Assembly (NCBI GenBank): GCA_046290465.1
Contig: JBKAGP010000001.1
Location: forward strand, 1,785,484-1,849,483
From: Planctomycetota bacterium
GTDB lineage: Bacteria > Planctomycetota > UBA1135 > UBA2386
Reading direction: 5' to 3'
DNA length: 64,000 nucleotides
Every line of letters begins with the position of its first letter. The stretch's first letter is position 1. Positions 22,261 through 55,520 of this stretch are shown here, piece after piece. Below the pieces are notes generated by a model. That model was not told the DNA's origin. It did not search any database and saw only the letters and a program-made list of their open reading frames with translations. The translations under genes were made by a program, and so were the position numbers.

Positions 22261-22331
22261 CCGGGGAGCTTACGGCAGCGACCCGCGGTTTCCGGCCCCG
22301 ACTGTGAGGTGGCCGTCGCTATCGTGGCGCG

Positions 22332-23123: not shown

Positions 23124-23129
23124 CCCGCC

Positions 23130-23190: not shown

Positions 23191-23436
23191 GGGCGCGCGC
23201 ACGACAGGATGCGCGCGCGACCGGCCACTCTTGCCGGCGCGAAGAAGGAGCCGGCTGGCGCCGTCCCTGCCCGCGCACGCATTCGAATATCGGCTCGAAG
23301 ATCAGGCGCCGTCTATAGGACGCGCAGACCTGCAGCGGCACACTACCGACCGCCAGAGCCGAATAGCGCGCTGCCAGATCGTATGCGCGTGCGGCCCCCT
23401 CAACCGTCCCGTCGTCGCAGGGACACCCGCCCAGCA

Positions 23437-23988
23437 ATGGAAACCGTCTACTTCTACTGTGCCGCCATCGGCGGCGGTCTGCTGCTGCTGCTCGTCCTGA
23501 TGATGCTGCTGTCCGGCGGCGACGCGGAGTTCGAAGCAGACGCGTCGCCCGACCTCGACGGCGACGCACCTGATGCGTCGAGCACGCTGTTCCAGATCTC
23601 GCTGAAGACCGTCGTGGCGTTCGTCACGTTCTTCGGCATCGCCGGTATGGCGAGCTCGCGAGCCGACCTCGCGTCGACGCCGACGCTGGTCATCGCGCTC
23701 ACCGCCGGCTTCGCTGCGTTCCTGATGGTCGGCTACGTCATGCAGGTTCTGCACGGTCTGCAGTCCAAGGGCAACGTCGACCTCAAGCAGGCGATCGGCC
23801 ACACGGCCAAGGTCGAGCTTCGCATCCCCGCCACGCAGGCCGGCACCGGCAAGGTGCAGGTCATCGTCGGCGGCCGCATGGTCTCGCGCAAAGCCGTCAC
23901 GCACGGCGAGGCCATCCCCACCGGCGCCGAGGTCCGCATCGACGCGATGCACGCGCCGGACACGTACCAGGTCACCCCCCTCAACTAA
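23437..23988 (+). CDS. NfeD/YqiJ-like membrane protein (flotillin partner)
   Basis: The ATG at 23437 gives METVYFYCAAIGGGLLLLLVLMMLL. There are 3-4 TM segments followed by a C-terminal soluble beta domain (GKVQVIVGGRMVSRKAV...GAEVRIDA). It sits directly upstream of flotillin, the conserved pairing. Confidence 0.7.
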   Translation: METVYFYCAAIGGGLLLLLVLMMLLSGGDAEFEADASPDLDGDAPDASSTLFQISLKTVVAFVTFFGIAGMASSRADLASTPTLVIALTAGFAAFLMVGYVMQVLHGLQSKGNVDLKQAIGHTAKVELRIPATQAGTGKVQVIVGGRMVSRKAVTHGEAIPTGAEVRIDAMHAPDTYQVTPLN

Positions 23989-23996
23989 GGAGAGAA

Positions 23997-25718
23997 ATGC
24001 TACTTCAAGGTGGATTCGACAGCCTAGGCGGCTGGACCGGGATCGGCATCGCAGCCGTCATCCTGTTCGGCCTGATCTTCTTCCTGATGCTCGCCAAGCA
24101 GTACAAGCGCTGCCCGAGCAACAAGATCCTCGTCATCTACGGCCGGGTGAAGTCCGGCACCTCGTCGCGCTGTCTGCACGGCGGTGGCGCGTTCGTCGTG
24201 CCGCTGATCCAGAGCTACGACTACCTCAACCTCGACCCGATCCAGATCGAGGTTCCGCTGCGCGGCGCGCTCTCCATCGAGAACATCCGCGTCAACGTGC
24301 CCAGCGTGTTCACGGTCGCCATCGGCACCGACGATCACGTGATGCAGAATGCCGCCGTGCGTCTGCTCGGGCTGTCGACCAAGGACATCATGAAGCAGGC
24401 CGAGGACATCATCTTCGGCCAGCTGCGTCAGGTGATCGCGTCGATGGGCATCGAGGACATCAACCGCGACCGCGACAAGTTCCTCGAGAACATCCAGACC
24501 TCGCTCGAGGGCGAGCTGATGAAGATCGGCCTGGTGCTGATCAACGTCAACATCACCGACATCACCGACGAGTCCGGCTACATCGAGGCGATCGGCCGCA
24601 AGGCCGCGTCCGAGGCGGTGCAGCAGGCCGAGATCGACGTCGCCGAGCAGCAGAAGAAGGGCTCCATCGGCGTCGCCGAGGCGCGCCGCGTCCAGTCCGT
24701 CCAGGTGGCGATCGCCGAGAAGGACCGCGACATCGGCACCAAGCAGGCCGAACGGGACCGCGAGGTCACGGTCGCCGGCCTGCAGCGCGACACGATCATC
24801 GGCCAGCAGACCGCGTCGTTCGAGCAGGAGGCGCAGGTCAAGGACCGCGAACGGGAGATGCGGATCGCGGTCGCGTCGGCCAACGCGCGGGCGGTGTCCG
24901 GCGAGAACGAGGCGAAGGCCGAGATCGCCGACGCCAACGCCAAGCTGCTGGTCAAGGAGGCCGAGGCCTTCCAGACCGGTGAGACGCGCAAGCGCGAGGC
25001 CGACGCGGCCGTTCGTGAGGCCCAGTACCAGGCCGAAGCGCGCGCGGCGCAGGCGCTGGCCAGCAAGCTCGAGCAGGAGAAGCGAGCCGAACTCGAGGCG
25101 GTGGCCAAGGCCGAGAAGGCCAAGGACATCGTCGACGCCGAGGCGCGGGCCCAGCAGGCGAGGATCATCGCCGAGGGTGAAGCGGCGGCCGAGTTCGCGC
25201 GGCTCGAGGCGCAGGCCCGCGGTGAGTTCGAGATCCTGGCCAAGAAGGCCGAAGGTCTCGAGCGCATCGTGCAGGGCTGTGGCGGCGCCCAGCAGGCGTT
25301 CCAGCTGCTGATGCTGGAGCACATGGAGACGCTGTCGGAGACCGCGGCCAAGGCGATCGCGAACATCAAGTTCGACAAGGTCGTCGTCTGGGACAGCGAC
25401 CAGGGCAAGGCGACGTCGGGCTTCCTGCAGAACCTGACCAAGTCGCTGCCGCCGATGCTGACGATGATGAAGGACGTCGGCGGCATCCAGATGCCGGAGT
25501 TCTTCGGCAAGATCCTCGGCGACGAGGAGCAGCCCGACGACGGCGAGGCGGCGGCCGCCGCCGCGACCGACGGCGCCAAGGACGCCGAGGTCACGGCCAG
25601 CAAGGAGAAGCCGGCGCAGAAGCGCGACCCGAAGAAGCAGGGCTCGCCCCAGCGGGACGGGGACAAGCGGAGCCCCGACAAGCGAGGCGCCGACGAGCGC
25701 GGCGACGATCCGAGCTGA
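23997..25718 (+). CDS. Flotillin-family SPFH/band-7 protein (FloT/YqiK-like)
   Basis: The protein has an N-terminal TM segment, an SPFH core (VVPLIQSYDYLNLDPIQIEV...FTVAIG) and a long Glu/Ala-rich coiled coil. An AAGGAG RBS overlaps the upstream stop. The tail is basic/acidic. Confidence 0.95.
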   Translation: MLLQGGFDSLGGWTGIGIAAVILFGLIFFLMLAKQYKRCPSNKILVIYGRVKSGTSSRCLHGGGAFVVPLIQSYDYLNLDPIQIEVPLRGALSIENIRVNVPSVFTVAIGTDDHVMQNAAVRLLGLSTKDIMKQAEDIIFGQLRQVIASMGIEDINRDRDKFLENIQTSLEGELMKIGLVLINVNITDITDESGYIEAIGRKAASEAVQQAEIDVAEQQKKGSIGVAEARRVQSVQVAIAEKDRDIGTKQAERDREVTVAGLQRDTIIGQQTASFEQEAQVKDREREMRIAVASANARAVSGENEAKAEIADANAKLLVKEAEAFQTGETRKREADAAVREAQYQAEARAAQALASKLEQEKRAELEAVAKAEKAKDIVDAEARAQQARIIAEGEAAAEFARLEAQARGEFEILAKKAEGLERIVQGCGGAQQAFQLLMLEHMETLSETAAKAIANIKFDKVVVWDSDQGKATSGFLQNLTKSLPPMLTMMKDVGGIQMPEFFGKILGDEEQPDDGEAAAAAATDGAKDAEVTASKEKPAQKRDPKKQGSPQRDGDKRSPDKRGADERGDDPS

Positions 25719-25975
25719 TCGGCGCCGCCCGGCGCAGCCGCCATTTTCTGTCGCTCCGCTGCAACCCGACCACCACGTCGGGCGTAGTGGACAGCGAGAA
25801 GGCTGCGCCGGATCAACCTCCTACCTTCTCTGAACCGAAGACCGCGCGCAGCCTTCTCCGTCTTTGTACGGCTTCTCCATCTTTGTACGGAGAGTTCGGC
25901 GACTCCTGGGTTGCCTCGACGCGCGCGGCCCCGCAATGTTTCGTTACCCTCGGAACAAGGAGTCCCACCAGAACT

Positions 25976-26302
25976 ATGAGCTCTCAAGACAGCAAGCGCG
26001 TCCTCGCCGGTGTCCTCGGTATCCTGATCGGCGGCCTCGGCATCCATCGCTTCATCCTCGACGACGCCAAGGGAGGCCTGCTGCGCATCCTGATCACGTT
26101 CGTCACCTGCGGCGCCGGCAGCCTGATCGGCCTCGCCGAAGGCATCATCTACCTGACCAAGTCGGACGAAGAGTTCATCCAGACCTACCAGGTCGAGAAG
26201 AAGGCCTGGTTCTCGGGCCCGACGGAATGCCCGGCAGCTCGTGCTGCTGGCGCCCCGACCCGAACCTGCGACGGCCCCCGATGGCGGGCGTTACGTCCCT
26301 GA
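25976..26302 (+). CDS. TM2-domain small membrane protein
   Basis: The ATG at 25976 is preceded by AAGGAG (25957..25962). The sequence VLAGVLGILIGGLGIHRFILDD..GLLRILITFVTCGAGSLIGLAEGIIYL matches the TM2 two-helix pattern. Confidence 0.7.
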   Translation: MSSQDSKRVLAGVLGILIGGLGIHRFILDDAKGGLLRILITFVTCGAGSLIGLAEGIIYLTKSDEEFIQTYQVEKKAWFSGPTECPAARAAGAPTRTCDGPRWRALRP

Positions 26303-26312
26303 TACCCAACGG

Positions 26313-26346
26313 CCGCCTGGCGCCCTGCGCCGGCGGCTAGTTTCTT
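26313..26346 (+). terminator. Putative intrinsic terminator/attenuator after the TM2 gene
   Basis: The stem CCGCCTGGCGC (26313..26323) / GCGCCGGCGG (26327..26336) has a 3-nt loop and one bulged T. It is followed by CTAGTTTCTT (26337..26346). Confidence 0.5.
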
Positions 26347-26372
26347 AGGTGCCCCAAGGAGCCTGCGCTCCC

Positions 26373-27864: not shown

Positions 27865-28593
27865 GTGGCTAGGGTGTGCGGCTTGTCCGACACCCCGCTG
27901 ATCGTCTCCCCCGGAATCAACGAGCGTTCCGTGCGTGTGCCCGGCGAGGGCCAGCGCAAGGTGCCCGACGGTTGGATCCTGGTCCCACCCGGCGACGCCG
28001 CGCTGACGCGCCGCATCAAGGCCGGCGGCCCGTGCTGGGTCGTGCAGGAGAAGCGCGGCCGACGCACGTTCTCGCGCGGCGTCTGGGCCGAGCGGGCCCG
28101 CGTCGAGCAGATCCAGCAGGCGCTCGAGGTCGAACGTGCCGATCCGGCGCATGAGCGCAAGCAGCAGGCGGCGGCCAGGCGACGCGAACAGAAGCAGACC
28201 GCCTACGTCTCCGAGTTCGCCGAGGCGGTGCGGCGCTTCCTCGACTTCCCGCTGCAGTACCACGAACTGTGCGAGCAGATGGTGCAGCGCGTCACCGCAC
28301 ACGCGACCCCCGTCGGCAGCGGCACCGTCGCGCGCACCGAGCGCATCCCGGTGCACCGGCGGGCCGAGTCCGCGGTGATCGCCTGGCTCCGCCACCAGAC
28401 CACCGCCTACGACCACATGCACATCGCCCGCGTCAAGGGACGCCGCCGCGAGGTCCGCCGCATGCTCGCCGAACGATCGCGCGAGCTGCTCGACGCCTAC
28501 CGCCAGGGACGCGCCGACGACCTGGTCGACTGTCCGCTGCAGAAGGCGCTGCGGCAGCCGCCGCTCAACGAGGCTTCGGCCGCGACAGACTGA
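27865..28593 (+). CDS. DUF2293-like protein
   Basis: The C-terminal half VGSGTVARTERIPVHRRAESAVIAWLRHQTTAYDHMHIARVKGRRREVRRMLAERSRELLDAYR matches my recollection of the DUF2293 signature (RH..T.YD). The start is GTG at 27865, with no in-frame ATG nearby. The assignment is from memory, not from a search. Confidence 0.6.
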   Translation: MARVCGLSDTPLIVSPGINERSVRVPGEGQRKVPDGWILVPPGDAALTRRIKAGGPCWVVQEKRGRRTFSRGVWAERARVEQIQQALEVERADPAHERKQQAAARRREQKQTAYVSEFAEAVRRFLDFPLQYHELCEQMVQRVTAHATPVGSGTVARTERIPVHRRAESAVIAWLRHQTTAYDHMHIARVKGRRREVRRMLAERSRELLDAYRQGRADDLVDCPLQKALRQPPLNEASAATD

Positions 28594-29722
28594 TGCGCGG
28601 CAGCGGCGTGCCCTTGGTCTCGTCGTCGCGCATGTCGACCAGGTCGAGGTCGATCGGCAGCAAGGTCTCGCGCGCCATCGCCGGCGACACCAGCTCGCGC
28701 CGCGCGAGCTGCACCAGCAGCGCCCGGAAGTCGGCGCGCAGTTCGGCGGCGATGTCCTCGACGGCGGTGCGCAGCTGCGCGGCGTCGTGCCACTGGACGC
28801 TCTCCTGCGCCTGGCTGCGCAACCGCTTGGCCGCCTTGCCGTCGGCCAGCTGCTTCAGGCAACGGAACGCGTAGTCGACGCGGTCGATCGTCACCGTGCG
28901 GCCGCCGCGCGGCCGGCCTTCGCGACGGTGATGGCGCACGTGGCTCGGCCCCGGCGCGAACGCGTCCTGCGCGCGCGTGCCGATCGACAGCTCGTAGCGC
29001 ACCTCCGGCGGCCAGCCCTCGAGCTTGCCCGGTCGCGCCACCCCGCAACCCATGCCCATCGACGACGAGAAGCCCGAACCGAAGCTGTCGGGCTCGACGA
29101 CGTACACCTCGAGTTCGATGCGGCAGCGACCGACCAGTTCCGGCGCGACCAGCTCCGGCCGATGTCGCACGAGCAGGTTGCACGCCGCGACCCAGCCGAC
29201 CCGCAGGTGACGTTCGTCCAGCAAGCGCAGCAGCATGCCGGCGTGCCGGGGAACGTCGCGCGATGCGATCACCAACGCCTCTGCGGTCCGCGCGCCGAAC
29301 CACGGCGCCAGCTCGGTCGGCGGCACCCGCGTGCCGGTCCGGATCACTGCGTCGAGCACCGCACCGGCGGCGCGGCGCCACGCGCCCTGGGGCAGCCGAT
29401 CGCCGCGGTGCGCCAACACCGTGCCGAGCGCCAGCCGCAGTTCGCGGCCGACGCTGGCGTCGTCGGGCGTGCGGTAGGCCGCCCACGCGATCCGCTGCAG
29501 GTCCTGGCCCGCGAGGTCCCGGCACAGCTGCTGGTGCCGCTCGAGCTGCCGTTCGTCCTGACCGGGCAGGGCGGCGCCGAGGGCGATCGCCCACAGGGCC
29601 ACCGTTCGCAGGACCATCATTCGCTGGACCATCATTCGCTGGGCCATCATTCGCTGGGCCATCGTCGCAAGGGCCATCACGGACCGCATCCGCGGCTTCG
29701 ACAGGGCAGGTCGCACCGGCAT
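28565..29722 (-). CDS. Hypothetical secreted protein; start ambiguous within a repeat of ATG-containing units
   Basis: The composition is balanced and non-shadow. The likely signal is MVLRTVALWAIALGAALPGQ, preceded by MAQRM-type repeats. The 3' end overlaps the convergent DUF2293 gene by 29 nt. No family was recognised. Confidence 0.55.
   Translation of the reverse strand: MPVRPALSKPRMRSVMALATMAQRMMAQRMMVQRMMVLRTVALWAIALGAALPGQDERQLERHQQLCRDLAGQDLQRIAWAAYRTPDDASVGRELRLALGTVLAHRGDRLPQGAWRRAAGAVLDAVIRTGTRVPPTELAPWFGARTAEALVIASRDVPRHAGMLLRLLDERHLRVGWVAACNLLVRHRPELVAPELVGRCRIELEVYVVEPDSFGSGFSSSMGMGCGVARPGKLEGWPPEVRYELSIGTRAQDAFAPGPSHVRHHRREGRPRGGRTVTIDRVDYAFRCLKQLADGKAAKRLRSQAQESVQWHDAAQLRTAVEDIAAELRADFRALLVQLARRELVSPAMARETLLPIDLDLVDMRDDETKGTPLPRISLSRPKPR
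29611..29685. repeat. 15-bp tandem repeat (3 good + 2 degenerate copies) at the 5' end of the hypothetical gene
   Basis: The units are ggaccatcattcgct x2, gggccatcattcgct, then gggccatcgtcgcaa and gggccatcacggacc. On the minus strand each good unit carries ATGATG (MAQRM MAQRM MVQRM M...). Confidence 0.85.
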
Positions 29723-29851
29723 GCCGCAGGCGAACGGTGCCGCGGCGCCAACGGTTCACCCGACCTGCCCCTTTCCGCCCAGGTCGTCCGGGCACCTGCC
29801 CACGGCACCCTGCGCCGGGTAGCATCTGCCGGGCTGACGAAGGAGTCGAAC

Positions 29852-30691
29852 ATGCCGCATCCACCATCGATCGCCGCGCCGCTCGCGCTCGCCCTCTCCG
29901 TCCTCGCCGGCTGCGGCAGCAGCGGCGGCGGCAGCGGCGAGACCGCGCAGCTGACGCAGCCGTCCCCGACGGCGGTGACGCGCACCGACATCGCCGAGCT
30001 GCTGGGCACCGGCAACGTCGCGCCGGTCGGGCTGACGCTGACGCCCGACACCGACGAACTGGTGCTGCTCGACGCGTCCCAGGGCGTGTTCGTCATGCAG
30101 GCCGACCGACGCTTCCGACGGCTCGCGACCGCGCGCGAACTCGAGGACCGGGCGCAACCGGCGTCGACGTTCACCGACATCGCCGGCCTCGGCTCCAACC
30201 GCTTCGCGATCACCGCGCGCAGCGACGGCTTCCTCTACGACAGCGACGCCGGCACCATCGAGCAGCACTTCTGCTACGTGCCCGGCCTGCTCGGGCCGGG
30301 CTTCGACCAGCTGACGCTCGGCGTCGCGTTCGACCCGGCGACCGGCCGCATCCTGGTGCAGCCGGTCACGGTGCAGGGCTGGCAGCAGACGTTCGTCAGC
30401 GAGGTCGGCACGTTCCCGATCAGCGGCGGGGTCGGTGAGGACTGGCACCCGATCCAGGAGCAGGACTACCTCGCCGGCGGCATCACCTGCGACAGCGCCG
30501 GCCTGCTGTGGATGGGCCGCGGCGCCGAGCTGCACACCTACGACCTGCAGAACGACACGATGACGTTCCAGCAGTCGCTGACGCGATTCGGCATCACCGA
30601 CATCACCGGCATGGTGTTCGACGGCGACGACCTGATGGTGATCGACGGCCCGACGGCGCAGCTGGTCTGCATCCCGGCGGCGCTGCTCTAG
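29852..30691 (+). CDS. Hypothetical lipoprotein
   Basis: The ATG at 29852 is preceded by GAAGGAG (29839..29845). The lipobox is LSVLAGC, followed by a Gly/Ser linker. The upstream 355 codons of the ORF-track entry are a shadow over the minus-strand gene. Confidence 0.75.
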   Translation: MPHPPSIAAPLALALSVLAGCGSSGGGSGETAQLTQPSPTAVTRTDIAELLGTGNVAPVGLTLTPDTDELVLLDASQGVFVMQADRRFRRLATARELEDRAQPASTFTDIAGLGSNRFAITARSDGFLYDSDAGTIEQHFCYVPGLLGPGFDQLTLGVAFDPATGRILVQPVTVQGWQQTFVSEVGTFPISGGVGEDWHPIQEQDYLAGGITCDSAGLLWMGRGAELHTYDLQNDTMTFQQSLTRFGITDITGMVFDGDDLMVIDGPTAQLVCIPAALL

Positions 30692-30774
30692 GAGCGCGTC
30701 CATGTAGTGGACGCGCTGCCGACCGTGATCGCGGAAGCGGCGTGTACGCGTGCGGACGGGGCTTTGCCCTGTAG
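30689..30774. repeat. REP-like 86-bp intergenic element, copy A (hairpin end first)
   Basis: The sequence is taGGAGCGCGTCCAtgtagTGGACGCGCTgccgaccgtgatcgcggaagcggcgtgtacgcgtgcggacggggctttgccc. Over its 81-nt core it is the reverse complement of copy B with one mismatch. The first 3 nt are the TAG stop of the lipoprotein gene. Confidence 0.95.
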
Positions 30775-30792
30775 GCGACGCCGTCGCGACGG

Positions 30793-31536
30793 TCAGCGGC
30801 CGGCCAGGAAGCCGAACCGCTGGAACACGAACTCCGGCAGCAGCCGCACGATCGCCATCACCGCGCGCCACGACGCCGGCAGGTAGACGCAGTGCCAGCG
30901 GCGCTCCATCGCGCGCACGATGCCGCGCGCGACCCGCACCTTCTCCCCCCACAGGGCGTTGCGCGGATGGCCCTCGGACATCGGCGTCGCCACCGGGCCG
31001 AGCTTGAGGTCGTGCACGCGCACGCCGCGCCGATGCAGGCGGCTGCGCACGCCCTGCAGGTAGCACGACAGGCCGGCCTTGGCGGCGCCGTAGGTGTAGT
31101 TGCGCGGCCGGCCGCGCACGCCGGCGACCGACGTGATCGCCGCGAGATGGCCGTGGCCCTGCTGTTCGAAGTGCTCGGCCAGCGGCATCAGCAGCGAGAC
31201 CGCGCTGACGAAGTTGGTGTCGATGGTCGTGCGGGCGTAGCCGACGTCGCGCTCACTGCGCAGCTGGTCGCCGAGGTAGCCGTGCGCGATCAGCGCGCGG
31301 TCGCAGCCGCCGAGTGCCGCGACGCCCCGTTGCACCCGTTGCTCGGCCAGATCGAACTCGTTCAGGTCGCAGCTCTCGGAGCCGACCACCGCGTCGCCGC
31401 AGCGCGTTACCACCGCGGCGAGCCTGGTCGGGTCGCGGCCGATCAGGTAGAGCCGGTCACCGCGCTCGGCGCACAACACGGCCACCTCCGCGGCGATCGC
31501 CGAGGTCGCGCCGCAGATCAGGGTCTTGCGCTGCAT
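30793..31536 (-). CDS. Short-chain dehydrogenase/reductase (SDR)
   Basis: The sequence has ICGATSAIAAEVA (Rossmann glycine motif variant), the catalytic YTYGAAK, and a length of 247 aa. Confidence 0.9.
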   Translation of the reverse strand: MQRKTLICGATSAIAAEVAVLCAERGDRLYLIGRDPTRLAAVVTRCGDAVVGSESCDLNEFDLAEQRVQRGVAALGGCDRALIAHGYLGDQLRSERDVGYARTTIDTNFVSAVSLLMPLAEHFEQQGHGHLAAITSVAGVRGRPRNYTYGAAKAGLSCYLQGVRSRLHRRGVRVHDLKLGPVATPMSEGHPRNALWGEKVRVARGIVRAMERRWHCVYLPASWRAVMAIVRLLPEFVFQRFGFLAGR

Positions 31537-31615
31537 GCCGCGAGCTTAGCCCGCGACGGCACCGAGCAGCACATCCGCGTTGCGCCCAGCACAGCGGCGC
31601 GCGATCCTCGCGCCC

Positions 31616-32080
31616 ATGCGTCCATCGCCCGTCGGCCTCGTCCCGTTCGCCATCTGTACGTTCGCGCTCGTCGCGCTGCCCGGCGCCTGCACCGGACCAG
31701 GCAAGCACCAGCTGCGCGGCGCGACCACGCCGGTCGGTCCGTACTCGCCGGGGATCGACTGCGGCGACTACGTGTTCCTCGCCGGCCAGATCGGCAAGGA
31801 CCCGGCTACCGGCAAGCTGGTGCCGGGCGGCATCGAGGCCGAGACGCACCAGGTCCTGAAGAACCTCGGCGCGGTGCTGCACGAGGCCGGCCTCGACTAC
31901 GGCGATGTCGTCAAGAGCTCGGTGTTCCTCGCCGACGTCGGCGACTTCGCGGTGATGAACGGCATCTACCAGAGCTACTTCCCGGAGGGCGGCATCCCGC
32001 CGGTCCGCACCACCGTGCAGGTCGCCGCGATCCCGACCGGCGCGCGCATCGAGATCGACTTCATCGCAGCCCGCCGCTAG
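31616..32080 (+). CDS. ridA: RidA/YjgF-family protein with lipoprotein-type signal peptide
   Basis: GPYSPGIDCGDYVFLAGQIGKDPATGKLVPGGIEAETHQVLKNLGAVLHEAG...RTTVQVAAIPTGARIEID is canonical RidA. The ATG at 31616 gives MRPSPVGLVPFAICTFALVALPGAC. The ORF-track start at 31580 is TTG. Confidence 0.9.
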   Translation: MRPSPVGLVPFAICTFALVALPGACTGPGKHQLRGATTPVGPYSPGIDCGDYVFLAGQIGKDPATGKLVPGGIEAETHQVLKNLGAVLHEAGLDYGDVVKSSVFLADVGDFAVMNGIYQSYFPEGGIPPVRTTVQVAAIPTGARIEIDFIAARR

Positions 32081-32163
32081 CGGGCAAAGCCCCGTCCGCA
32101 AGCGTACACGCCGCTTCCGCGATCACGGTCGGCAGCGCGTCCACTACATGGACGCGCTCCTAA
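32078..32163. repeat. REP-like 86-bp intergenic element, copy B
   Basis: The sequence is tagcgggcaaagccccgtccgcaagcgtacacgccgcttccgcgatcacggtcggcAGCGCGTCCActacaTGGACGCGCTcctaa. Its left TAG is the ridA stop. At the right end, cta (32160..32162) is the TAG stop of the minus-strand VOC gene. Confidence 0.95.
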
Positions 32164-32642
32164 GCCCGATCGACGACCTCGATCGCGTTGCCCCACGGGT
32201 CGGTCAACTGCAGCGAACGCACCCCGTCGGCGCGACGGCTGCTCGGACCGAGCTCGGCGACGTCCGGGCTGACGATCGTCAGCGGCGGCTCGGCGTCGTC
32301 CCACCGGCACAGCTGCAGGTGCGTCTGGCCGAACGCGAGCAGCGCGCGCCGTTCGTCCACCTGCACGACCTCACAACGGAAGTGCTCGCGATACCAGGCG
32401 ACGGCCCGGTCGAGATCCCCGACGCGGACCGAGACCGCGTGCACGCGGTCCGACTCACCCTCGGCGCGCGGCGGCGGCTTGCGCTGGCACAGGAAGTCGG
32501 GGTTCTTGACCATCTGCGTGAGCGCCTGCTCGAGGCGGACGGCCAGCGCCGGCTCGTCGCGGCGGAGCCGATCGAGCAGCTGCCGACGGCCGGCATCGTC
32601 GAGGTCCATCGCATACTCGAAGTAGTCGTCCAGGGGGTCCAT
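32160..32642 (-). CDS. VOC (glyoxalase/bleomycin-resistance/dioxygenase) family protein with N-terminal helical extension
   Basis: The ATG at 32642 gives MDPLDDYFEY... The VOC core is RVHAVSVRVGDLDRAVAWYREHFRCEVV ... LTDPWGNAIEVVD. The upstream part of the ORF-track entry is a shadow. Confidence 0.75.
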   Translation of the reverse strand: MDPLDDYFEYAMDLDDAGRRQLLDRLRRDEPALAVRLEQALTQMVKNPDFLCQRKPPPRAEGESDRVHAVSVRVGDLDRAVAWYREHFRCEVVQVDERRALLAFGQTHLQLCRWDDAEPPLTIVSPDVAELGPSSRRADGVRSLQLTDPWGNAIEVVDRA

Positions 32643-32832
32643 GGGTGCCTGTTCGCAGCGCCACCCGGCTCGGACGCACGGGCGCGCCCCGGGCGGTGGC
32701 CTCGAAACGGCCGATGCTACCGCGCCGACCGCCCCGGCCAGAACGTTCGTGCCACATCCACCCCGTGCTCGTGGCACAATGTTCGGTGCAATCACCGCCC
32801 CCAGAACGGGCAGGTGAGCGTATCGACCCTCC

Positions 32833-33990
32833 ATGCCCTCGCTCCCGGTCCGCTCCACGAGCCTCGCGCTGCTGCTGACGACGTGCTGCGTCGCGGAGGT
32901 GGCTGCGCAGACGACGTGGATCGTCGACCAGGCCGGCGGCCCCGGCTCGCAGTTCACCAACCTGACGCCCGCGATCGCGGCGGCGTCCGACGGCGACCTG
33001 ATCCTGATCCGGCCCGGCAACTACGCCGAGGGCCAGCTCGACGTCGACAAGGGCCTGACGATCCTCGGCGAGACCGGCGTCGTCGTGACCATGAACGTGT
33101 TCGGCACCGCCGGCATGACGATCCACGACGTGCCGGCGACGTCGGCGTTCGCGATGCGCGACCTGCGCATCGGCGGCCAGCTCGCCGGCCCCCCGGTCGC
33201 GATCGTCGACTGCGCCGGCCTGGTGCTGCTCGACAAGCTCGAAGGACCGATCGGTGGGCTCGGGCTGCCCGAGAACTTCGGCGTGCACGTCGAGAGCTGC
33301 CAGCAGGTCCACCTGCACGGCCTGCTGGTCCGCGGCGGGCAGTCGGTGCGCTTCGAGAACAGCGTCGGCACGGTGACCCGCTGCACGCTCGAGGGCGGCA
33401 TCGCCGGCGTCGCGCAGCTCGTCGACTCGGACGTCACGTTCGATCGCTCGGTCGTCAACATCGAACCGACCGTCAGCTTCGCGCCGCCGATGCAGGTCGA
33501 CGGTGGCCGCGTGACGCTGTCGCGCTCGTCGGTCGAGGCGCCGATCTCGCCGCAGACCCCGCACCCGGCGATCGTCACCCAGGGCAGCGCCGAACTGCGC
33601 GTCGACCCGACCGCGTCGCTGGTGCCGACCGCCGGCCAACCGGCGATCAGCGGGCCGGCGATCGTCAGCAACGGCGAGGTCGACACACTGTCGCGCGACG
33701 GCACCGGCGTGATCACGTTCGACCTGCACGGCCGCGCCGGCTCGATCTACGGCAGCTACGCGACGCTGCCGGCAGCGACGACCGCGCTGCCGTTCGGCGT
33801 GCTGTGGCTCGACCTCAACCCGGCCGTGCAACTGCCGATCACGGCGGGTGTCGTCACCACGCGCCAGCAGTCGTTCACGCTGGACACTACGCCGCTGCCG
33901 CTCGGCCTGCGGTTCGTCGTGCAGGCCGGCGTGCTCGACCCGTCGCTGACGCTCGCGCTCAGCAACGGCGTCGGCGCGCTCGCCAACTGA
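32833..33990 (+). CDS. Secreted right-handed beta-helix repeat protein (pectate-lyase-fold like), function unknown
   Basis: The signal is MPSLPVRSTSLALLLTTCCVAEVAAQ, followed by TWIVDQAGGPGSQFTNLTPAIAAASDGDLILIRPGNY (typical beta-helix N-cap). Periodic V/I-x-G/N rungs follow. Confidence 0.7.
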   Translation: MPSLPVRSTSLALLLTTCCVAEVAAQTTWIVDQAGGPGSQFTNLTPAIAAASDGDLILIRPGNYAEGQLDVDKGLTILGETGVVVTMNVFGTAGMTIHDVPATSAFAMRDLRIGGQLAGPPVAIVDCAGLVLLDKLEGPIGGLGLPENFGVHVESCQQVHLHGLLVRGGQSVRFENSVGTVTRCTLEGGIAGVAQLVDSDVTFDRSVVNIEPTVSFAPPMQVDGGRVTLSRSSVEAPISPQTPHPAIVTQGSAELRVDPTASLVPTAGQPAISGPAIVSNGEVDTLSRDGTGVITFDLHGRAGSIYGSYATLPAATTALPFGVLWLDLNPAVQLPITAGVVTTRQQSFTLDTTPLPLGLRFVVQAGVLDPSLTLALSNGVGALAN

Positions 33991-33996
33991 GCCGGC

Positions 33997-36900
33997 TCAC
34001 GCCCACAGCACCAGCCCGCGCACCTTGGCGTCGTGGCGGCCATGTGCCGGCACGCGCACGCGCAGGCCGTGCTGGTAGTGGCCCGCCAGCTCGACGCGGT
34101 AGCCGCCGTGGAACGACTGCGCTCCGGCGTCGGTCTCGCCGACGTGCTCCAGCGGCACGACGATCGTCTCCTCGTCCCCCTCGCCGCGGGTCACCACCAG
34201 CTCGACGACGACGTCGTCGGGGCGCAGCGGGCCGAGCGCGACGTCGAGGTGCACGTCGAGGTGCTGGCCGACCTTGAAGTCCGCCATCTCGACCGTCGAG
34301 GCGCCGGTGATGCGCACCTTGTCGAAGCCCTGACGAACGCGCTGGAACTCGCGCGCGCGGGCCCGCGCCGGCGCCTTCTTCTCGGCCTGCTGGGCGAAGT
34401 AGCTGGCGGCCAGCGGGCGGTAGGCGTCGTCGAGGTAGTCCGACACCATGCGATCGGTACTGAACACCGCCGGTAGGGTCGCAAGGCAGCGGTTCATGCG
34501 CGCGACCCAGCTGGTCGGCACGCCGTCGTCGCAACCGAAGTAGCTCGGCACCAGCTCCTCCTCGAGCAGCCGGTAGAGGGCGGTCGCATCCGACTCGTTC
34601 TGCAGTTCGTGGCTGCCGTAGACCTGCGAGCCGCCGATCGTCCAGCCGTTGTGGCCGTCGGCGCCCTCCGGCCACCAGCCGTCGGCGATCGACAGGTTGA
34701 GCACGCCGTTGGCCGCCGCCTTCATGCCGGACGTGCCGCTGGCCTCCTCCATCCGGGTCGGCGTGTTGACCCACACGTCGACGCCCTGGACCAGCGCGCG
34801 CGCCACCGCCATGTCGTAGTCCTCGACGAAGAACACCTTGCCGACGAACTCGGGCGACCGCGCCAGCTGCACGATCGACTTGAGGATGTCCTGGCCGCGC
34901 TGGTCGCGCGGGTGCGCCTTGCCCGACACGACGATGCGCACCGGCCGGTCGGCGTCGTCGAGGATGCGCCGCAGCCGCTCCGGATCGCTGAACAGCAGGT
35001 GCGCGCGCTTGTACGGAGCGAACCGGCGCGCGAACCCGAGGTAGAGCGCGCGCTCGTCGAGGCCCTCGAGCATCGTGCTCAGCACCGTCGGGCTGTCGCC
35101 ACGGGCGTGGAAGCCGCGGGTCAGCACCTTCTGCACCTTGTCGATCATGCGGCGCTTGTTGTCGCAGTGCGCCGCCCACAGCTGTTCGGGCGCGACCTCG
35201 CCGGCGGCCGCGAACTCCGCCGGACGCACGCCGGCATCGCCCGTGCGCAGCAGCGCCGCGACGTTCTCGCTGGTCCAGGTCGCCAGGTGCACGCCGTTGG
35301 TCACCGACGTGATCGGCACCTCCCCCTCCAGCAGGCCCGGCCAGAACGCATGCAGCAGCTTCTGCGAGGCGCGGCCGTGCATCTTGCTGACGCCGTTGAC
35401 ATAGCCGGCGAAGTTCATCGCCAGGTAGGTCATGTTGAACACGCTGCCGCCATCGTCGGTCTGCTGGCGACCGAGCGCGAAGAAGCCGTCCCACGGCAGC
35501 CCGACCCACTCCTCGGCGTCGCCGAAGTAGGTGCGCACCAGGTCCTCGCCGAAGCGATCGTGGCCGGCCGGCACCGGCGTGTGGGTCGTGAACAGCGTGG
35601 TCTCGGCGATGTACTCGCGCGCCGCCTCGAACGGCAGGCCCTCGCCCTTGACCAGGCGCGAAGTGCGCTCGAGGGTCAGGAACGCGGCGTGGCCCTCGTT
35701 CATGTGGTAGACGGCCGGCCGCAGCTGCATCGCGCGCAGCAGCCGCACGCCGCCGCGGCCGAGCACGATCTCCTGCCGGATCCGCATCTCGTTGTCGCCG
35801 CCGTAGAGGTTGCGGGTGATGTCGCGATCCTCGTCGCGGTTCTGCGGCACGTTGGCGTCGAGCAGGAACAGCGGCACGCGGCCGACGCTCGCCTGCCACG
35901 CGCGCAGCACCACCTCGCGGCCCGGCATCGGCACGCTGATCTCGAGCGCGCTGCCGTCCGGCTTGCGCACCAGCTCGAGCGCCAGCTTCGGCGGCCGGTT
36001 CTCGCGGTCGGCCGCGATCTGCTGGCCGTCGCTCGACAGCTGCTGCTGCATGTAGCCGAACCGGTAGAACAGGCCGACGCCGACCAGCGGCACGTTGAGG
36101 TCGCTGGCCGACTTCAGGTGGTCACCGGCGAGGATGCCGAGGCCGCCCGAGTAGACCGGCAGCGAGTGGTGCACGCCGAACTCGGCCGAGAAGTAGGCGA
36201 CCGGGTGCTCGCGGCTCAACTGCGGCGCGTCGGTTCCGTCCCGCACCGGCATCGGCTGCTGCGCGGTCGCCATGTAGGCGTCGAACCGTTCGCAGACCTC
36301 GGCCAGCCGCGCCAGGTACGACGCGTCGCTGGCCTTCTGCTCGAGCGCCTCGAGCCCGACGCCCTGCAGGAACGCGACCGGGTTCTCGCCGCAGTCGTCG
36401 AACCCGGGCGCCAGCTCCTCGAACAGTTCGCGCACGCCCGGCGTCCACACCCACCAGAAGTTGCGGGCCAGCCGCTCAAGGCCGCGCAGGCTCTGCGGCA
36501 GCGTCGCCGACGCCTCGAAGCCCGACAGCCGTGGCCTGGTGCCGCCGCCCGGCGTCGGCAGCGCGCGCTTGGGCAGCCGGAACTGCACCACGCCCGACTT
36601 GCTGCGCCGCTGCACGGCGCCGATCGCGGCGTCGTAGGCCTTCAGGTAGTTCGCGTAGAGGTCCTTCCACGCGGTCCGCCCGGCCGCTTCGCGGCAGCGC
36701 GCGCGCAGCGCGTCGTCATTGGCCGGCCGGTCCAGGAACGCCTCGATCGCTTCGGCGGTCGACGCGACCACTTCCGCATACGGCACGCGCTCGCGGGCGA
36801 GCACCGTGATGCCGTCCTGCGGACCGAGGCCCGCCGACGCCGCCCAGCGACCGAAGCCGGCCAGGTCGGTCGTGATCGTCGGCACCCCGACCGCCAGCGC

Positions 36901-38226
36901 CTCCTGCGGCGTGTAGCCCCACGGCTCGTAGTAGGACGGGTAGACCCCGAGGTCCATCGCCGCGAGCACCGCCTCGTACTCGCGGTGCAGGAAGCCGTCG
37001 TCGGGTCGCAGGTAGATCGGCACCTGCACGACCTTGATGCGGCTGCCGGGCTCGTTGTCGAGGCCGACGCGCGCAGCGTGCTGGTGCAGCGGGTCTCGGT
37101 CCTCGTCGAACAGGTTGTGCGTGCACAGCCCGAGCGGGCCGTCGATCGGCGCGGTGCCGTCGAGGCGGTCCATCAGTTCGCCGCGCACGCCCGAGTTGCC
37201 GGCCGGCACCAGCACGAACGCGACCACCCTGCGACCCTTGCGTTCGCGAATCTCGGCGAGCGCGTCGAGCATCAGCTCGATGCCCTTGTTGTGGAACTCG
37301 TAGCGGCCGGCGAGCGCGAAGAACGACGCGTCGTCGACGTCCTCGCCGAGCAGCGCGCCGGCGATCCGGCTCAGCTCGCGCCGGGTCTCGTCGCGGTCGC
37401 CCCTGGCCAGCTCGTCGACGACCGACATGTCGATGCCGTTGGGCAACAGCGGCGCGACCTCGCGGTCGTGCAGCAGTTCGGCCTCGGCTGCGGTGATCGC
37501 ACTGACCGTCGTGAACACGTCGGCCTTGCGCGCGCAGACGCCCTCGATCGAGTGCTTGGCCTGCACGTGGTGGTCCTCGGCCAGCTCGTCCGGCGTCTTG
37601 CCACCGAGCCCCTTGTCGCGCGCCTTCGGGTCCGGCGTGATGCCGAGCGACGCCAGCGCGCGGCCGAGCATGGTCGCGTGGGTCGTGAACACCGTGCCGA
37701 TGCTCGGGATGCGCTCCTGCAGGTAGAGCAGCGCCGCGCCGGTCATCCACTCGTGGGCCTGCACGACCGCCCGGCGATGGAACGGCGCCAGGTACTCCTC
37801 CCACCAGCGCTCGATCACCTTGGCGGCGGCGGTCGAGAACAGCACCGGTTCGATGTAGTCCCAGTCGCCGGCGATCGAGTCGACCTGATGGCGTTCCCAG
37901 AGGCCGGCGAGGATGCCGTCCTTCTGCTCGTAGAGCCCGGAGAACCCGACCAGGATGCAGCGCGGCCGACCCGGGATGCGCCAGCGACCGACGCGCACCG
38001 GCACGCCCATGTCCCGGCACGAACGGATGAACTCGTCGTGCCCCGGCTCGTCGTCGAACGGCGGCTGCACGCCGGTGCCGCCGTGCAGCTGCGGCCCGAT
38101 GGTGATGTAGTCGTCGCCGAATCGTTCGACGGCGGTCACGGCCTTCGACGACAGCACCGTGTGGATGCCGCCGACCTTGTTGCACACTTCCCAGCTGATC
38201 TCGAACAGTTGGTAGGAGTCGGTCAT
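33997..38226 (-). CDS. Fusion protein: eukaryote-type glycogen synthase (GT3) + alpha-glucan phosphorylase (GT35), 1409 aa
   Basis: The ATG at 38226 gives [24 protein letters not shown] (GT3 N-terminal signature), with [10 protein letters not shown] later. The second half has [50 protein letters not shown] and the PLP-lysine motif [14 protein letters not shown]. It is a single uninterrupted frame. Confidence 0.9.
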   Translation of the reverse strand: [1409 protein letters not shown]

Positions 38227-38228
38227 GT

Positions 38229-41589: not shown

Positions 41590-42873
41590 ATGCATTCTTT
41601 GGTCCGTCCGCTCGGCCGCACCCCGCGATCACGCATGGTCCCGCTCGACCTCCGCAACACCCTCGTCTTCATCCTGGCGGGCGGCGCAGGCAGCCGCCTG
41701 ATGCCGCTCACGACGCACCGCGCGAAGCCGGCCGTGCCGTTCGGCGGCAGCTACCGGATCATCGACTTCACGCTCAGCAACTGCATCCACTCGGGCCTGC
41801 GCCGCATCCACCTGCTGACGCAGTACCAGGCGCGCTCGCTCGAGGAGCACGTGCGCTTCGGCTGGAACTTCCTGCCGCGCCGCCTCGAGCAGTGGATCAG
41901 CTGCAGCCCACCGCACCACGTCTCGGTCGGCAAGTGGTACCGCGGCACGTCGGACGCGATCTACCACAACCTCGACACGATCTACGACTGGAAGCCGACC
42001 AACGTGATCATCCTGTCGGGCGATCACATCTACCAGATGGATTACCGCGACATGCTCCGCGAACACGTCGAGCACGAAGCGGCGCTGACCATCGGCGCGG
42101 TCAAGATCCCGGTCGAGGAGGCCCCGAGCTTCGGCATCCTGCAGGTCGACGACGAGGGCCGCATCATCGGCTTCGTCGAGAAGCCGAAGGAGAACGCGCC
42201 GGAGATCCCTGGCGAGCCCGGCTACTGCCTCGCGTCGATGGGCATCTACGTGTTCGAGACCGAGGAGCTGGTCCGCCGGCTGCAGGAGGACGGCAAGATG
42301 CCGGAGGGCGAGGGCGGTGACTTCGGCCACCACGTGATCCCGCGCATGCTCGGCGAGGTCCCGATCTACGCGCACGCGTTCCAGGGCCTCGGCGGCGAGG
42401 ATCCGCCCTACTGGCGCGACGTCGGCACGATCGAAGCCTACTTCGACGCGCACATGGACCTGATCAGCGTCAAGCCGCAGCTCAACCTCTACCGCAAGGA
42501 CTGGCCGACCTACACGCTGTGGCACAACGACCCGCCGGCCAAGACCGTCTTCAACGAGGACGGCGACGGCCGCCGCGCGGAGGTCGCCGACTCGCTGCTG
42601 GCACCGGGCGTCGTGGTCAGCGGCGGCAAGGTGCGCCGTTCGATCCTCAGCAACCTCGTCTACGTCGACGAGCACAGCGAGCTCGACGAGTGCATCGTGA
42701 TGCGCGGCGCCACCATCGGCCGCAACTGCAAGCTGCGCCGCTGCATCATCGACAAGTGGAACGAGCTGCCCGAGGGCACGGTGATCGGCTACGACCGCGA
42801 ACAGGACGAGAAGCGGTTCACGGTGTCGCAGACCGGCATCGTGGTGGTCGCGCAGAACCACCGCTGGGACTAG
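41590..42873 (+). CDS. glgC: Glucose-1-phosphate adenylyltransferase
   Basis: The sequence contains FILAGGAGSRLMPLTTHRAKPAVPFGGSYRIIDFTLSNCIHSGLRRIHLLTQYQARSL and a left-handed beta-helix C-terminus. An alternative ATG lies at 41635. Confidence 0.95.
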   Translation: MHSLVRPLGRTPRSRMVPLDLRNTLVFILAGGAGSRLMPLTTHRAKPAVPFGGSYRIIDFTLSNCIHSGLRRIHLLTQYQARSLEEHVRFGWNFLPRRLEQWISCSPPHHVSVGKWYRGTSDAIYHNLDTIYDWKPTNVIILSGDHIYQMDYRDMLREHVEHEAALTIGAVKIPVEEAPSFGILQVDDEGRIIGFVEKPKENAPEIPGEPGYCLASMGIYVFETEELVRRLQEDGKMPEGEGGDFGHHVIPRMLGEVPIYAHAFQGLGGEDPPYWRDVGTIEAYFDAHMDLISVKPQLNLYRKDWPTYTLWHNDPPAKTVFNEDGDGRRAEVADSLLAPGVVVSGGKVRRSILSNLVYVDEHSELDECIVMRGATIGRNCKLRRCIIDKWNELPEGTVIGYDREQDEKRFTVSQTGIVVVAQNHRWD

Positions 42874-42902
42874 GAGCGCGTCCATGTAATGGACGCGCTC
42901 CT
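42871..42902. repeat. REP-like element, hairpin-only copy C
   Basis: The sequence is taGGAGCGCGTCCATgtaATGGACGCGCTCCt, a perfect 13-bp stem (42873..42885 / 42889..42901) with a 3-nt loop. TAG at 42871..42873 is the glgC stop. Confidence 0.9.
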
Positions 42903-43809
42903 GGCGGCCGCGCAGGGCCACCGAGGCGGCCTCGCGCAGGTCCTCGGGCACCTGCTCGAGCATGGCCGCCATCGGCACCTCCCACAGGGTCCAGATCGTC
43001 GTGACCCGCGTGTCGGGACGGTGGCCGTCCAGCGGGAACGGACGGCGGAACCAGTCGGCGCGCTGCACCGGCGCGATCCGGTCGATGCCGCGATCGGCTG
43101 CCGCCGACGCGACCCGGAAGCCGACGGCCGGAGCGAGCCGGGCGAGCAGCCGTTCGCGCACGTCCGAACGCGTCGCGGCGAGCGCGGCCCGGCTGGTCGC
43201 CGCCGGCATTTCGCCGAACGTGCGCAGGGCCAACCGCACGTAGCCTTGCCTGGCCGGCGGCGCCGCATACCACGCGGGCGGCGCGTCGAGGCGCTGCCAC
43301 CGCACGACGTCGCGCAACAGGATCCACTCGACCCGGCCCTGCAGCTGCGGGTCGAGCTCGGCCAGCGCCGCTCGGATCGGCAGTTGCCAGCGCAGGTAGG
43401 CCGCGCCGACGGTCTGGCCGGGACCGCGCGCACCGGGGATGCGGCGGGTCGGCTCGGCCGCCGCCTCGACCAGCTGCACGTGGCGCACCAGCACCTCGAC
43501 GACCGCAGACGCTCGCTCGTCCCCGAGCACCGGCGTGACGTGTTCGGTGAGCACGCGGCGCACGTCCCGTTCGCCGAGCATGCCCGCGCGGGTCTGCGCC
43601 AGCTCCCGGTTCGAGCCGCGGCGCACCGTCGCGAACGCGAACATGCCCGCCTTGCGCGCGGGTTTCGCCACCCAGCCGGGCTGCTCGTCGCAGCTCCGCC
43701 ACTGCAACGGCCGGCCACCGACGTCAGCGGCCGCGATCGGCTCCTGTTCGGACTGGGCCAGCGCGGGCAGCGCGAGCGCGAGGACGAGCGACGGCGAGAG
43801 CAACTTCAT
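42871..43809 (-). CDS. Secreted paralog 1 (two PxW[VY] modules); no in-frame stop at its expected end, so it is a possible pseudogene or readthrough
   Basis: The ATG at 43809 gives MKLLSPSLVLALALPALAQ (signal). It is collinear with the paralog at 43853..44764 down to ...SVALRGRQ (about 42903). After that the frame runs through the hairpin and antisense to glgC, with the first stop at 41629. The lower coordinate is nominal. Confidence 0.55.
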
Positions 43810-54987: not shown

Positions 54988-55437
54988 TTGCAAGCACTGC
55001 GCACGATCCTGCTGACCCTGTCGCTGCTGGCCACCGCAACGGCCCAGGACGCCGCACCGCCGGAGAACCCGGCGCTGCGCTACCAGACGATCTTCTGGTC
55101 GACGGTCGCCGCGTTCGGACTCGGCGCCGCGATCCTGCTGTGGCGCATGCACGCGCTGCAGGTCGCCGCCCACCGCGAGCAGCGCGAAGGCAACGCGCGC
55201 CTCGAGCAGGCACTGTCGCAGGTGCGCGAGCTGCGCGGCCTGCTGCCGATCTGTGCCCACTGCAAGTCGATCCGCGACGACGCCGGCTACTGGCACCGCA
55301 TCGAGGCCTACCTGACACAGCACTCCAAGGCGTCGCTGTCGCACGGCATCTGCCCCACCTGCGCCGACGACCACTACCCCGAGCTGGGCATTGACGCCGA
55401 GACCGGGCAGCCACCGATGGACCGCGAGGCCGGCTAG
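54988..55437 (+). CDS. Small membrane-anchored protein with coiled coil and C-terminal four-cysteine module
   Basis: The TTG start at 54988 lies 11 nt after the fdhD stop, and there is no upstream in-frame ATG. It gives the signal (M)QALRTILLTLSLLATATAQD. A TM segment FWSTVAAFGLGAAILLW follows, then LPICAHCKSIRDDAGYWHRIEAYLTQHSKASLSHGICPTCAD. Confidence 0.65.
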   Translation: MQALRTILLTLSLLATATAQDAAPPENPALRYQTIFWSTVAAFGLGAAILLWRMHALQVAAHREQREGNARLEQALSQVRELRGLLPICAHCKSIRDDAGYWHRIEAYLTQHSKASLSHGICPTCADDHYPELGIDAETGQPPMDREAG

Positions 55438-55520
55438 CGGGCAAAGCCCCGTCCGCAAGCGTACACGCCGCTTCCGCGATCACGGTTGGCAGCGCGTCCA
55501 CGTCATGGACGCGCTCCTGA
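55435..55520. repeat. REP-like 86-bp intergenic element, copy D
   Basis: It has the same orientation as copy B and differs at 4 of 86 positions: 2 in the hairpin loop (CGTCA vs CTACA), 1 in the spacer and 1 at the far end. Its first TAG is the stop of the four-Cys protein gene. Confidence 0.95.

Follow-up and report, generated by a model that had tools for sequence, protein, structure and literature searches.

Published repetitive extragenic palindromic (REP) elements include GTAGGAGCGCGCTCGCGCGCGA from Xanthomonas and GTAGGAGCG... from Pseudomonas, and the GTAG-1 REP of Xanthomonas campestris is built as GTAG-GA-GCGCGC... (PMC2817692). REPs are found singly or as head-to-head dimers, tags outward, whose spacers are conserved; they prefer intergenic sites between convergent or unidirectional genes and often supply, with their GTAG termini, the TAG stop codon of flanking open reading frames (ORFs), the second position of the tag can be degenerate (GYAG), and REP families are known in Planctomycetes (Di Nocera 2013, PMC3733652). 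The IS200/IS605 family has no inverted repeats and makes no real duplication (PMC2817692). Here we analyse a repeat in a stretch of 64,000 nucleotides (64 kb, "the window"; G+C content 70.7%) of contig JBKAGP010000001.1, which belongs to an uncultured Planctomycetota metagenome-assembled genome (MAG, GCA_046290465.1). The repeat is a real, recently mobile palindromic element resembling REPs and bacterial interspersed mosaic elements (BIMEs), and comparison of its copies in two strains with element-free sites in relatives shows that it inserts at (C/T)TAG with one extra TAG per insertion, that it is present in multiple copies and that these turn over between strains.

The REP/BIME-like behaviour put forward in the original prediction, which was made from the letters of the window alone, is borne out: the repeat is multi-copy, non-coding and hairpin-bearing and has the tag-GA-GC-stem layout of GTAG-1 REPs. 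Its hairpin module of 27-35 nt with a stem of 10-14 bp agrees with the short GC-rich imperfect palindrome (20-40 bp) typical of REPs. The terminal tetranucleotide GTAG of the REP superfamily (variants GYAG, GTRG and GTGG) is not found, only TAG and the adjoining GA match, and the element is REP-like, not a strict member of the GTAG family.

A repeat search of the window returned inverted arms of 86 nt at 30689-30774 and 32077-32162 (97% complementary) and a third copy at 55431-55518 (92-97% identical). With blastn, the first copy (A) matched the second (B) with 98.8% identity over 81 nt (1 mismatch, E=4e-40) and the third (C) with 95% identity over 80 nt, and a hairpin-only match (D) at 42870-42899 was 96.7% identical over 30 nt; no further match with an E-value <0.01 was obtained with the copies in the 64-kb window. 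The three full copies and the single hairpin-only copy reported before were thus all recovered, and the A/B pair has, as had been described, outward hairpins AGCGCGTCCA-n5-TGGACGCGCT and inward GGGCAAAGCCCC ends. The copies and their parts are:

30689..30774, plus strand: copy A, with an 80-nt body at 30692-30771 and TAG at 30689-30691 and 30772-30774
30693-30702 and 30708-30717: stems of the head hairpin of copy A, with the loop TGTAG
about 30758-30769: tail hairpin of copy A, GGGGCTTTGCCC
32077..32162, minus strand: copy B, with the body at 32080-32159, reverse complement relative to copy A
32077-32079 and 32160-32162: direct repeats CTA of copy B
42870..42904, no strand: copy D, a hairpin on its own (REP-like singleton), with a body of 27 nt at 42874-42900
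55434..55519, minus strand: copy C, with the body at 55437-55516, oriented as copy B, and CTA at 55434-55436
30703-30707, 32144-32148, 55501-55505 and 42886-42888: head loops in the window, with the same loops in contigs L089, L092 and L094 of a second strain

Copy D is no truncated full copy; it is a longer perfect palindrome in its own right. In contig L081, from the same organism, it reads CTAG-GAGCGCGTCCAT-gta-ATGGACGCGCTC-CTAG, a perfect extended palindrome, and the window has CT(G)G on its right side. With four copies in 64 kb and a fifth (copy E) in the adjoining 10.6 kb of the second strain, the density is approximately one per 15 kb.

The copies were compared with three groups of sequences. 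The same organism is represented by the short-read (Logan) contigs L068, L081, L082 and L088 of run SRR22269038, which align to the window over 25.5 kb with 2 mismatches and 0 gaps. The second strain is represented by L089/L090, L092/L093 and L094 from the Joint Genome Institute (JGI) metagenomes 3300044604, 3300044605 and 3300045058, contigs that are 98.1-99.0% identical to the window. The 64-kb window and the second-strain sequence cover about 75 kb of the host species. More distant relatives with the same gene order are L069/L070 (GlgC 97%), L071-L080 (GlgC 92%), L083/L084 (89% for the short-chain dehydrogenase/reductase, SDR) and L085-L087 (SDR 85%); homologues of GlgC and SDR all come from uncultured Planctomycetota.

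Read from the hairpin end, every instance has the form ...(C/T)TAG | GAGCGCGTCCA ... | TAG.... The instances covered were A, B and C of the window, D in L081, and, in the second strain, A, the full and the solo element at B, the full element at D, and E. TAG stands on both sides in 8/8 distinct instances from the two strains and CTAG on both sides in six of the eight, and a single TAG is present at the empty sites of relatives. The earlier statement that there is no clear target duplication is contradicted by these flanks, although an element that itself ends in TAG and inserts 3' of a TAG would leave the same picture. The tag on the hairpin side is CTAG or TTAG at 5/5 junctions, with CAG in two places in the window, and its first base is never G. 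Beyond the TAG the flanks share further bases at A (CTCTAG vs CTGTAG), at C (CGTTAG vs CGCTAG) and, with CGCTAG at either end, at B of the second strain, identity reaching 5-6 nt in some copies. At both non-palindromic targets, the TTAG of B and that of C, the element is oriented alike with respect to TAG.

The boundary TAGs are tied to the ends of genes. All five sites, E included, lie between convergent genes, and each of them has one boundary TAG, or both, coinciding with the stop of a neighbouring gene; for the four sites of the window the convergent arrangement, noted before, was confirmed by frame-specific GC3 (G+C at third codon positions) and Pfam. The flanking genes are:

29852..30691, plus strand: lipoprotein-like gene (279 aa), with the TAG that bounds copy A on the left as its stop
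30793..31536, minus strand: SDR gene (adh_short), with a product identical to NCBI protein MFN3241257.1
31616..32080, plus strand: ridA (Ribonuc_L-PSP), whose TAG stop at 32078-32080 adjoins the tail end of copy B
32160..32645, minus strand: glyoxalase-like gene (about 160 aa, start approximate), whose TAG stop at 32160-32162 adjoins the hairpin end of copy B
41635..42873, plus strand: glgC, whose TAG stop is the left boundary of copy D
42901..43809, minus strand: hypothetical gene (302 aa), whose TAG stop is the right boundary of copy D in SRR22269038
beside copy C: a gene for a small Cys-rich membrane protein (plus strand, stop TAG at 55435-55437) and an FGE-sulfatase gene (minus strand)

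In L081 a perfect CTAG...CTAG encloses copy D and supplies the stops of both convergent genes; at B, too, the two flanking TAGs are the stops of the two convergent genes. An element adjoins 5 of the 12 TAG-terminated genes of the window (6 of 13 if the 302-aa gene is counted), and four of the eight CTAG tetranucleotides in the window are junctions. The glgC and ridA genes stop at the same codon as in relatives, where this codon is mostly TGA (TGA in the glgC relatives). The glyoxalase-like protein ends in ...VVDRA*, as in L071, and in L069 and L083 the frame reads on and overlaps ridA. At A the exact lipoprotein-like protein is encoded on the Logan contig that breaks off 14 nt inside the element (L088), and the TGA stop of the SDR gene is 18 nt away from the right TAG. 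Most of this 18-nt spacer is a perfect 12-nt palindrome, CCGTCGCGACGG, at 30781-30792, and the spacer is missing in the relatives L083 and L085.

As a background for this association we counted approximately 19 other intergenic TAGs and approximately 12 stop TAG/TAAs in the 37 kb that are confidently annotated. Against these numbers the finding that 4/4 insertions are located at stop codons is only weakly significant (roughly 5%). Selection alone may be the reason why only stop-codon TAGs are occupied, and we do not claim recognition of the stop codon as such.

Relatives show what the sites look like in the empty state. At site A, L083 has the lipoprotein orthologue ending in '...GCGCTGCTC TAG' with the SDR stop, TCA, directly after it and no element ('CTGCTC TAG|TCA'); in the window an identical '...GCGCTGCTC TAG' leads into the element. 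The element at site B is missing in L069, L071 and L083, with L069 and L083 reading '...CGC TAG GCG...'. The order in L071 is DUF2293 gene, SDR, ridA and 160-aa gene, with the convergent stops 8 nt and 40 nt apart, and relatives whose SDR is 83-89% identical generally have the lipoprotein or DUF2293 gene, SDR, ridA and the glyoxalase-like gene in this order and no element. As these element-free relatives keep the same context, SDR and ridA were present here before either element. The original prediction had named such relatives as evidence against itself; they do speak against the part of it that saw SDR-ridA as a cassette, and they support the elements as insertions. Judged from these alignments, copies A and B are two independent insertions and not the ends of a mobile gene cassette.

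The element was not found in the regions read of relatives with 85-97% protein identity, and blastn against a plasmid collection gave no match to it. Two scans of metagenome contigs, one with a 22-mer of the spacer and one with TAG plus hairpin, gave no match either in a collection that evidently lacks the JGI samples carrying the species; each full copy of the second strain has a substitution inside the searched 22-mer, and the solo hairpin of L089 fits the TAG-plus-hairpin pattern exactly. A search of a genome collection with the palindrome GCGCGTCCAN5TGGACGCGC yielded chance palindromes of unrelated high-GC genomes, none of which carried the element among the matches listed.

Having established the empty sites we compared the occupied sites between the near-identical strains. 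In the second strain, 98.9% identical, copy A has the same place and orientation with 2/80 substitutions. At B the flanks align with the window in one direction and the element in the opposite one, and a solo hairpin is located between the element and the glyoxalase-like gene ('GGGCC TAG [solo] TAG [tail...head] CTA GCGG'). Since only 2/80 nt differ between the inverted B copies of the two strains, the element may equally well have flipped in place between the CTAG palindromes on its flanks or have been inserted independently a second time. At D the second strain has a full element in place of the solo hairpin, and its copy E has no tail hairpin. Each rearrangement was seen in two independent JGI samples (L089/L090 and L092/L093), and the arrangements are therefore no assembly artefacts. 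These comparisons show an apparent interconversion of singleton, doublet and inverted forms within the time-scale of 1% divergence. Four contig ends of SRR22269038 lie inside elements (both ends of L068, that of L082 in C and that of L088 in A), and L091, from SRR32932204, also ends inside an element, as expected of a repeat that exceeds the k-mer.

Both mismatches between the window and the 25.5 kb of SRR22269038 fall into tags, one at 42903 (right side of D) and one at 55519 (C, where 55517-55519 reads CTG in the window and CTA in SRR22269038). Each affects the T of the TAG directly ahead of GAGCGCGTCCAT, where the window reads CAG. The change at 42903 removes the stop of the 302-aa gene, leaving the frame in the window open to 41629, antisense of glgC; the 302-aa protein is not listed by NCBI and is present in Logan. 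All that the JGI strain retains of this gene is its last 45 nt, the deletion having apparently arisen via G(T/C)GCCC microhomology, and it looks like a decaying gene. It is plausible that the CAG readings are a motif-specific consensus error, with CCTA[A/G]C being affected and CCTAGA and CCTAAG not; the MAG was probably based on long reads since it is assembled as a single contig of 6.59 Mb. They may also reflect a real recurrent change at the tag.

The basic unit of the element is a 27-nt GC-rich hairpin, GA-GCGCGTCCA-loop-TGGACGCGC-TC, with (C/T)TAG in front of it and a loop of 5 nt in the 80-nt form. It occurs on its own as copy D in the window and as the solo beside B in the second strain. 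In the 80-nt form, a mosaic, this head hairpin is joined to a conserved spacer (about 38 nt) with the potential for a weak second hairpin, and then to a 14-nt tail hairpin, CGGGGCTTTGCCCG, which is optional and has TAG after it. Two of the instances observed were solo hairpins and six were mosaics. Copy E, the mosaic without tail, ends in '...GTGCGGA|CTAG'. The element ends read GAGCGCGTCCA... and ...GGGGCTTTGCC, and the 2-3 nt ahead of the right-hand TAG are variable (CGC, CTG or GAC). Between the ends of the 80-nt element (GAGCGCGTCCATG vs GCGGGCAAAGCCC) there are no terminal inverted repeats, and the solo hairpin alone is palindromic.

Copies differ from each other by 2-6/80 nt. The stems of the head hairpin are constant across nine sequences except for one change, at which pairing is retained as G.T on the tail-first strand. 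The centre of the head loop is hypervariable, with five dinucleotides (TA, TC, AC, TT and AA), and differs even between orthologous copies of strains 1% apart. An invariant stem with a variable loop centre points to constraint on the stem. Folded as single-stranded DNA, the copies are predicted to form three separate hairpins instead of one long hairpin, and their folds surpass those of shuffled controls (z = -3.0 to -7.7), with copy D reaching -18.9 kcal/mol (z=-7.7).

We propose that the copies belong to a family of small palindromic elements of the REP/BIME type that is lineage-specific, mobile and non-autonomous and is moved in trans by an HUH enzyme, an explanation that we regard as probable with moderate confidence. 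New copies integrate at (C/T)TAG, with the body and one TAG being added each time, and in a gene-dense genome of such high G+C content a tolerable TAG is most often the amber stop of a gene converging on its neighbour. The body starts with G and mostly ends with C, by which TAG is restored on both strands and the stops of both neighbours are rebuilt at their original position, so that insertion is nearly neutral. The copies would move as single-stranded hairpin DNA, and the enzyme, which we infer to be a REP-associated tyrosine transposase (RAYT) or another HUH tyrosine transposase of the IS200/IS605 type, would cut after TAG on the hairpin-first strand. Such an enzyme is favoured by the lack of inverted repeats, by the hairpin beside each TAG and the GTAG-type REP layout, by the identical orientation relative to TAG at both TTAG targets, and by the solo element, as 27 nt are plausible as a hairpin substrate and not as a duplex transposon. 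A role as terminator or in mRNA stabilisation would be secondary.

Several observations weigh against this explanation. No transposase of any kind was seen in the roughly 75 kb of the species, and the enzyme is thus purely inferred: in accordance with the original prediction, no Pfam transposase family matched the ORFs of the window that were scanned, nor were any found in the gene tables of L089, L092 and L094. Two extra genes beside copy A were considered as mobilising enzymes and rejected, the products being secreted or lipoprotein-like and devoid of transposase features. Further, the tag is (C/T)TAG and not the GTAG that defines the classical superfamily, and the two hairpins of the doublet are unrelated to each other, in contrast to the symmetric doublet of REPINs (REP doublets forming one long hairpin). 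Finally, the variable 2-3 nt before the right TAG resemble the left flank in some copies, and this resemblance would suit a longer true target duplication by a DDE transposase better than an element-borne 3' end.

The last point leads to the main rival, a MITE (miniature inverted-repeat transposable element) that is moved by a CTAG-targeting DDE transposase, with the flanking TAG/CTAG as true target-site duplications. Insertion sequences (ISs) of the IS630/Tc1 type duplicate TA, those of the IS5/IS427/IS1031 type 2-4 bp and those of the IS481 type 6 bp, NCTAGN; targeting of CTAG/YTAR with duplications of TA, 4 bp or 6 bp is typical of these families. Direct repeats at all eight instances, with CTAG on both sides of six, are what such an element would leave behind, the identity 2-3 nt past TAG in several copies (A, second-strain B, C) fits a longer duplication, and reinsertion at the same palindromic CTAG either way round would account for the flipped B. 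However, the 80-nt element has ends without a common inverted repeat, the 27-nt solo would consist of two 12-nt 'ends' 3 nt apart, too short for synapsis of a duplex, and the same orientation at the TTAG of B and of C suggests strand-specific recognition. No DDE transposase was seen nearby. The extended match at the second-strain D site (GAC) is also explained by the internal end of copy E, ...GCGGA|CTAG; a 6-bp NNNTAG duplication, tried as a candidate, is weakened by the fact that this internal end, ...GGA|CTAG, accounts for the 'GAC'. We consider the DDE-driven MITE to be possible, if rather unlikely.

A more specific version of HUH-driven movement, the 'stop-codon lander', is doubtful in our view. 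Here the HUH enzyme would insert a hairpin tagged with CTAG/TTAG in place of the canonical GTAG specifically at amber/ochre stops that convergent genes share or lie next to; the element would rebuild TAG on both strands and could flip or swap its forms (solo, doublet, tail-less doublet) in place between strains only 1% apart, and the two T-to-C changes of the tag (at C and D) and the hypervariable loop would be scars of ongoing enzymatic processing, not assembly errors.

The copies could instead be primarily functional signals, i.e. bidirectional terminators or mRNA-stabilising hairpins, that selection maintains, and not selfish mobile DNA, which we regard as improbable. The exclusive location between convergent genes, directly after stop codons, would suit such a function, as would the stable hairpins, in which the only two changes of a stem are G.U-compatible on the tail-first strand, and REPs have been reported to affect termination and mRNA stability (PMC3733652). 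On the other hand, there is no U-tract: a scan of 30400-32400 detected no terminator-like sites, and no T-run follows any copy. Rfam gave no match at gathering thresholds for the whole window and none even at E<=1 around the A/B pair. Moreover, the orthologous junctions in relatives work without elements, and near-identical strains differ in orientation and composition, so no fixed function is needed at each site. With neither a U-tract nor a terminator-like site an intrinsic terminator was rejected. We also rejected an integron attC site, as the junctions (CTAGGAG, TTAGGAG etc.) contain no consistent GTTRRRY and the genes are convergent and conserved without the element. No promoter-like sites were matched, and when the element was translated in six frames and searched against proteins for read-through ORFs, no match was obtained.

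That the inverted A/B pair marks a mobilised two-gene cassette or a substrate for SDR-ridA inversion, as the original prediction had considered, is scarcely credible, and a composite transposon and a dif-module-like unit were likewise rejected: the two inverted copies are 98.8% identical, lie 1.3 kb apart around exactly two genes and offer 80 nt of identity that could in principle support rare RecA inversion, but relatives (SDR 83-89%) have the same flanks, gene order and SDR/ridA orientation without elements, A is common to both strains while the B site differs, so that the two have separate histories and were not acquired together, and copies C, D and E flank unrelated genes.

Other differences between the window and its relatives were observed along the way. 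Compared with the 92% relative L073 the window has six extra segments (19606-22471, 23092-26351, 28538-30793, 32643-38269, 42871-46496 and 54969-55536), the content of which includes Ku and LigD-type genes of non-homologous end joining (NHEJ), a Band_7 gene and a 1409-aa glycogen synthase/phosphorylase fusion. Copies A, C and D are located at edges of extra segments, and in the second strain segments and elements vary independently. The 61-kb contig of the second strain (L092, 1-4171) leaves the synteny of the window at approximately 50.7 kb. In place of SlyX, a PNP gene and a nucleoside transporter gene it has UvrC, a 719-aa gene and a CNNM gene, and the two strains, 98.9% identical, thus differ here by a rearrangement or an indel. 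At 59984-60069 a 17-nt tandem repeat, TCCAGATGGTCAGGGGT, covers with its 5.1 copies both the stop of a chorismate-binding gene and the start codon of an aminotransferase gene and has only 2 units in the JGI strain, i.e. it is a variable-number repeat at a gene junction. In L069 (7549-7628) the glgC stop is followed by tandem units of about 15 nt (CCTGGGACTGGCC-like) that echo the last codons (CGCTGGGACTGA), and the contig ends inside this array.

An uncultured planctomycete lineage of high G+C content gains a well-delimited REP/BIME-like family. Unusually clean sets of filled, empty and rearranged alleles in near-identical strains fix the insertion point to the base, the TAG stop codon. How REPs choose their sites and spread is poorly understood, and a family bounded by TAG throughout could be a convenient test case after identification of its cognate enzyme. 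The elements also matter for annotation quality as they break short-read assemblies and coincide with the sole discrepancies between MAG and short reads, one of which removes a stop.

Among known systems, the element can be compared with MITEs that target TA or CTAG (Correia/Nemis and IS630- or IS5-derived elements). It shares with them its size, the intergenic location, duplicated TA-containing flanks and the ability to overlap stop codons, but those MITEs have clear terminal inverted repeats and the element has none. Palindrome-associated transposable elements (PATEs), miniature elements derived from IS200/IS605, and the insertion mode of IS608 are alike in the absence of terminal inverted repeats, in hairpins near both ends, in an orientation specific for the target strand, and in insertion directly 3' of a short specific sequence (here TAG), with the element's own 3' end, which has a similar sequence, apparently mimicking a duplication. 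They differ in the distance of the hairpins from the cleavage-like sites (10-20 nt, here 1-3 nt), and here the linker before the 3' TAG is variable and no TnpA or TnpB partner was found. REPINs (Bertels and Rainey) are likewise units of approximately 80-90 nt with REP-like sequence and near-identical copies, non-autonomous and apparently recently active; however, the halves of the present element are not inverted copies, and the fold predicted for it is not a single long hairpin.

GTAG-type REPs are among the systems nearest to it. No RAYT gene has been linked to the element, the first base of its tag is C or T, its stem is longer (10-12 bp), and the second hairpin of its doublet is a different, optional 14-nt module and not a second REP copy. 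In common with the GTAG-1 REPs of Pseudomonas and Xanthomonas it has an unpaired xTAG and GA before a GC-rich hairpin, with (C/T)TAG-GA-GCGCG... here and GTAG-GA-GCGCGC... there (PMC2817692, PMC3733652). Like GTAG-type REPs in general it is extragenic, mostly between convergent genes, with the terminal TAG as stop of the flanking ORF; it exists singly or, with the tags outward, as doublets whose spacer is conserved, its arrangement varies between strains, and G.T pairs are tolerated in its stems. The element is best read as a new REP-like mosaic family, consisting of a REP singleton and a mosaic doublet and specific to one planctomycete species, within a known kind of system.

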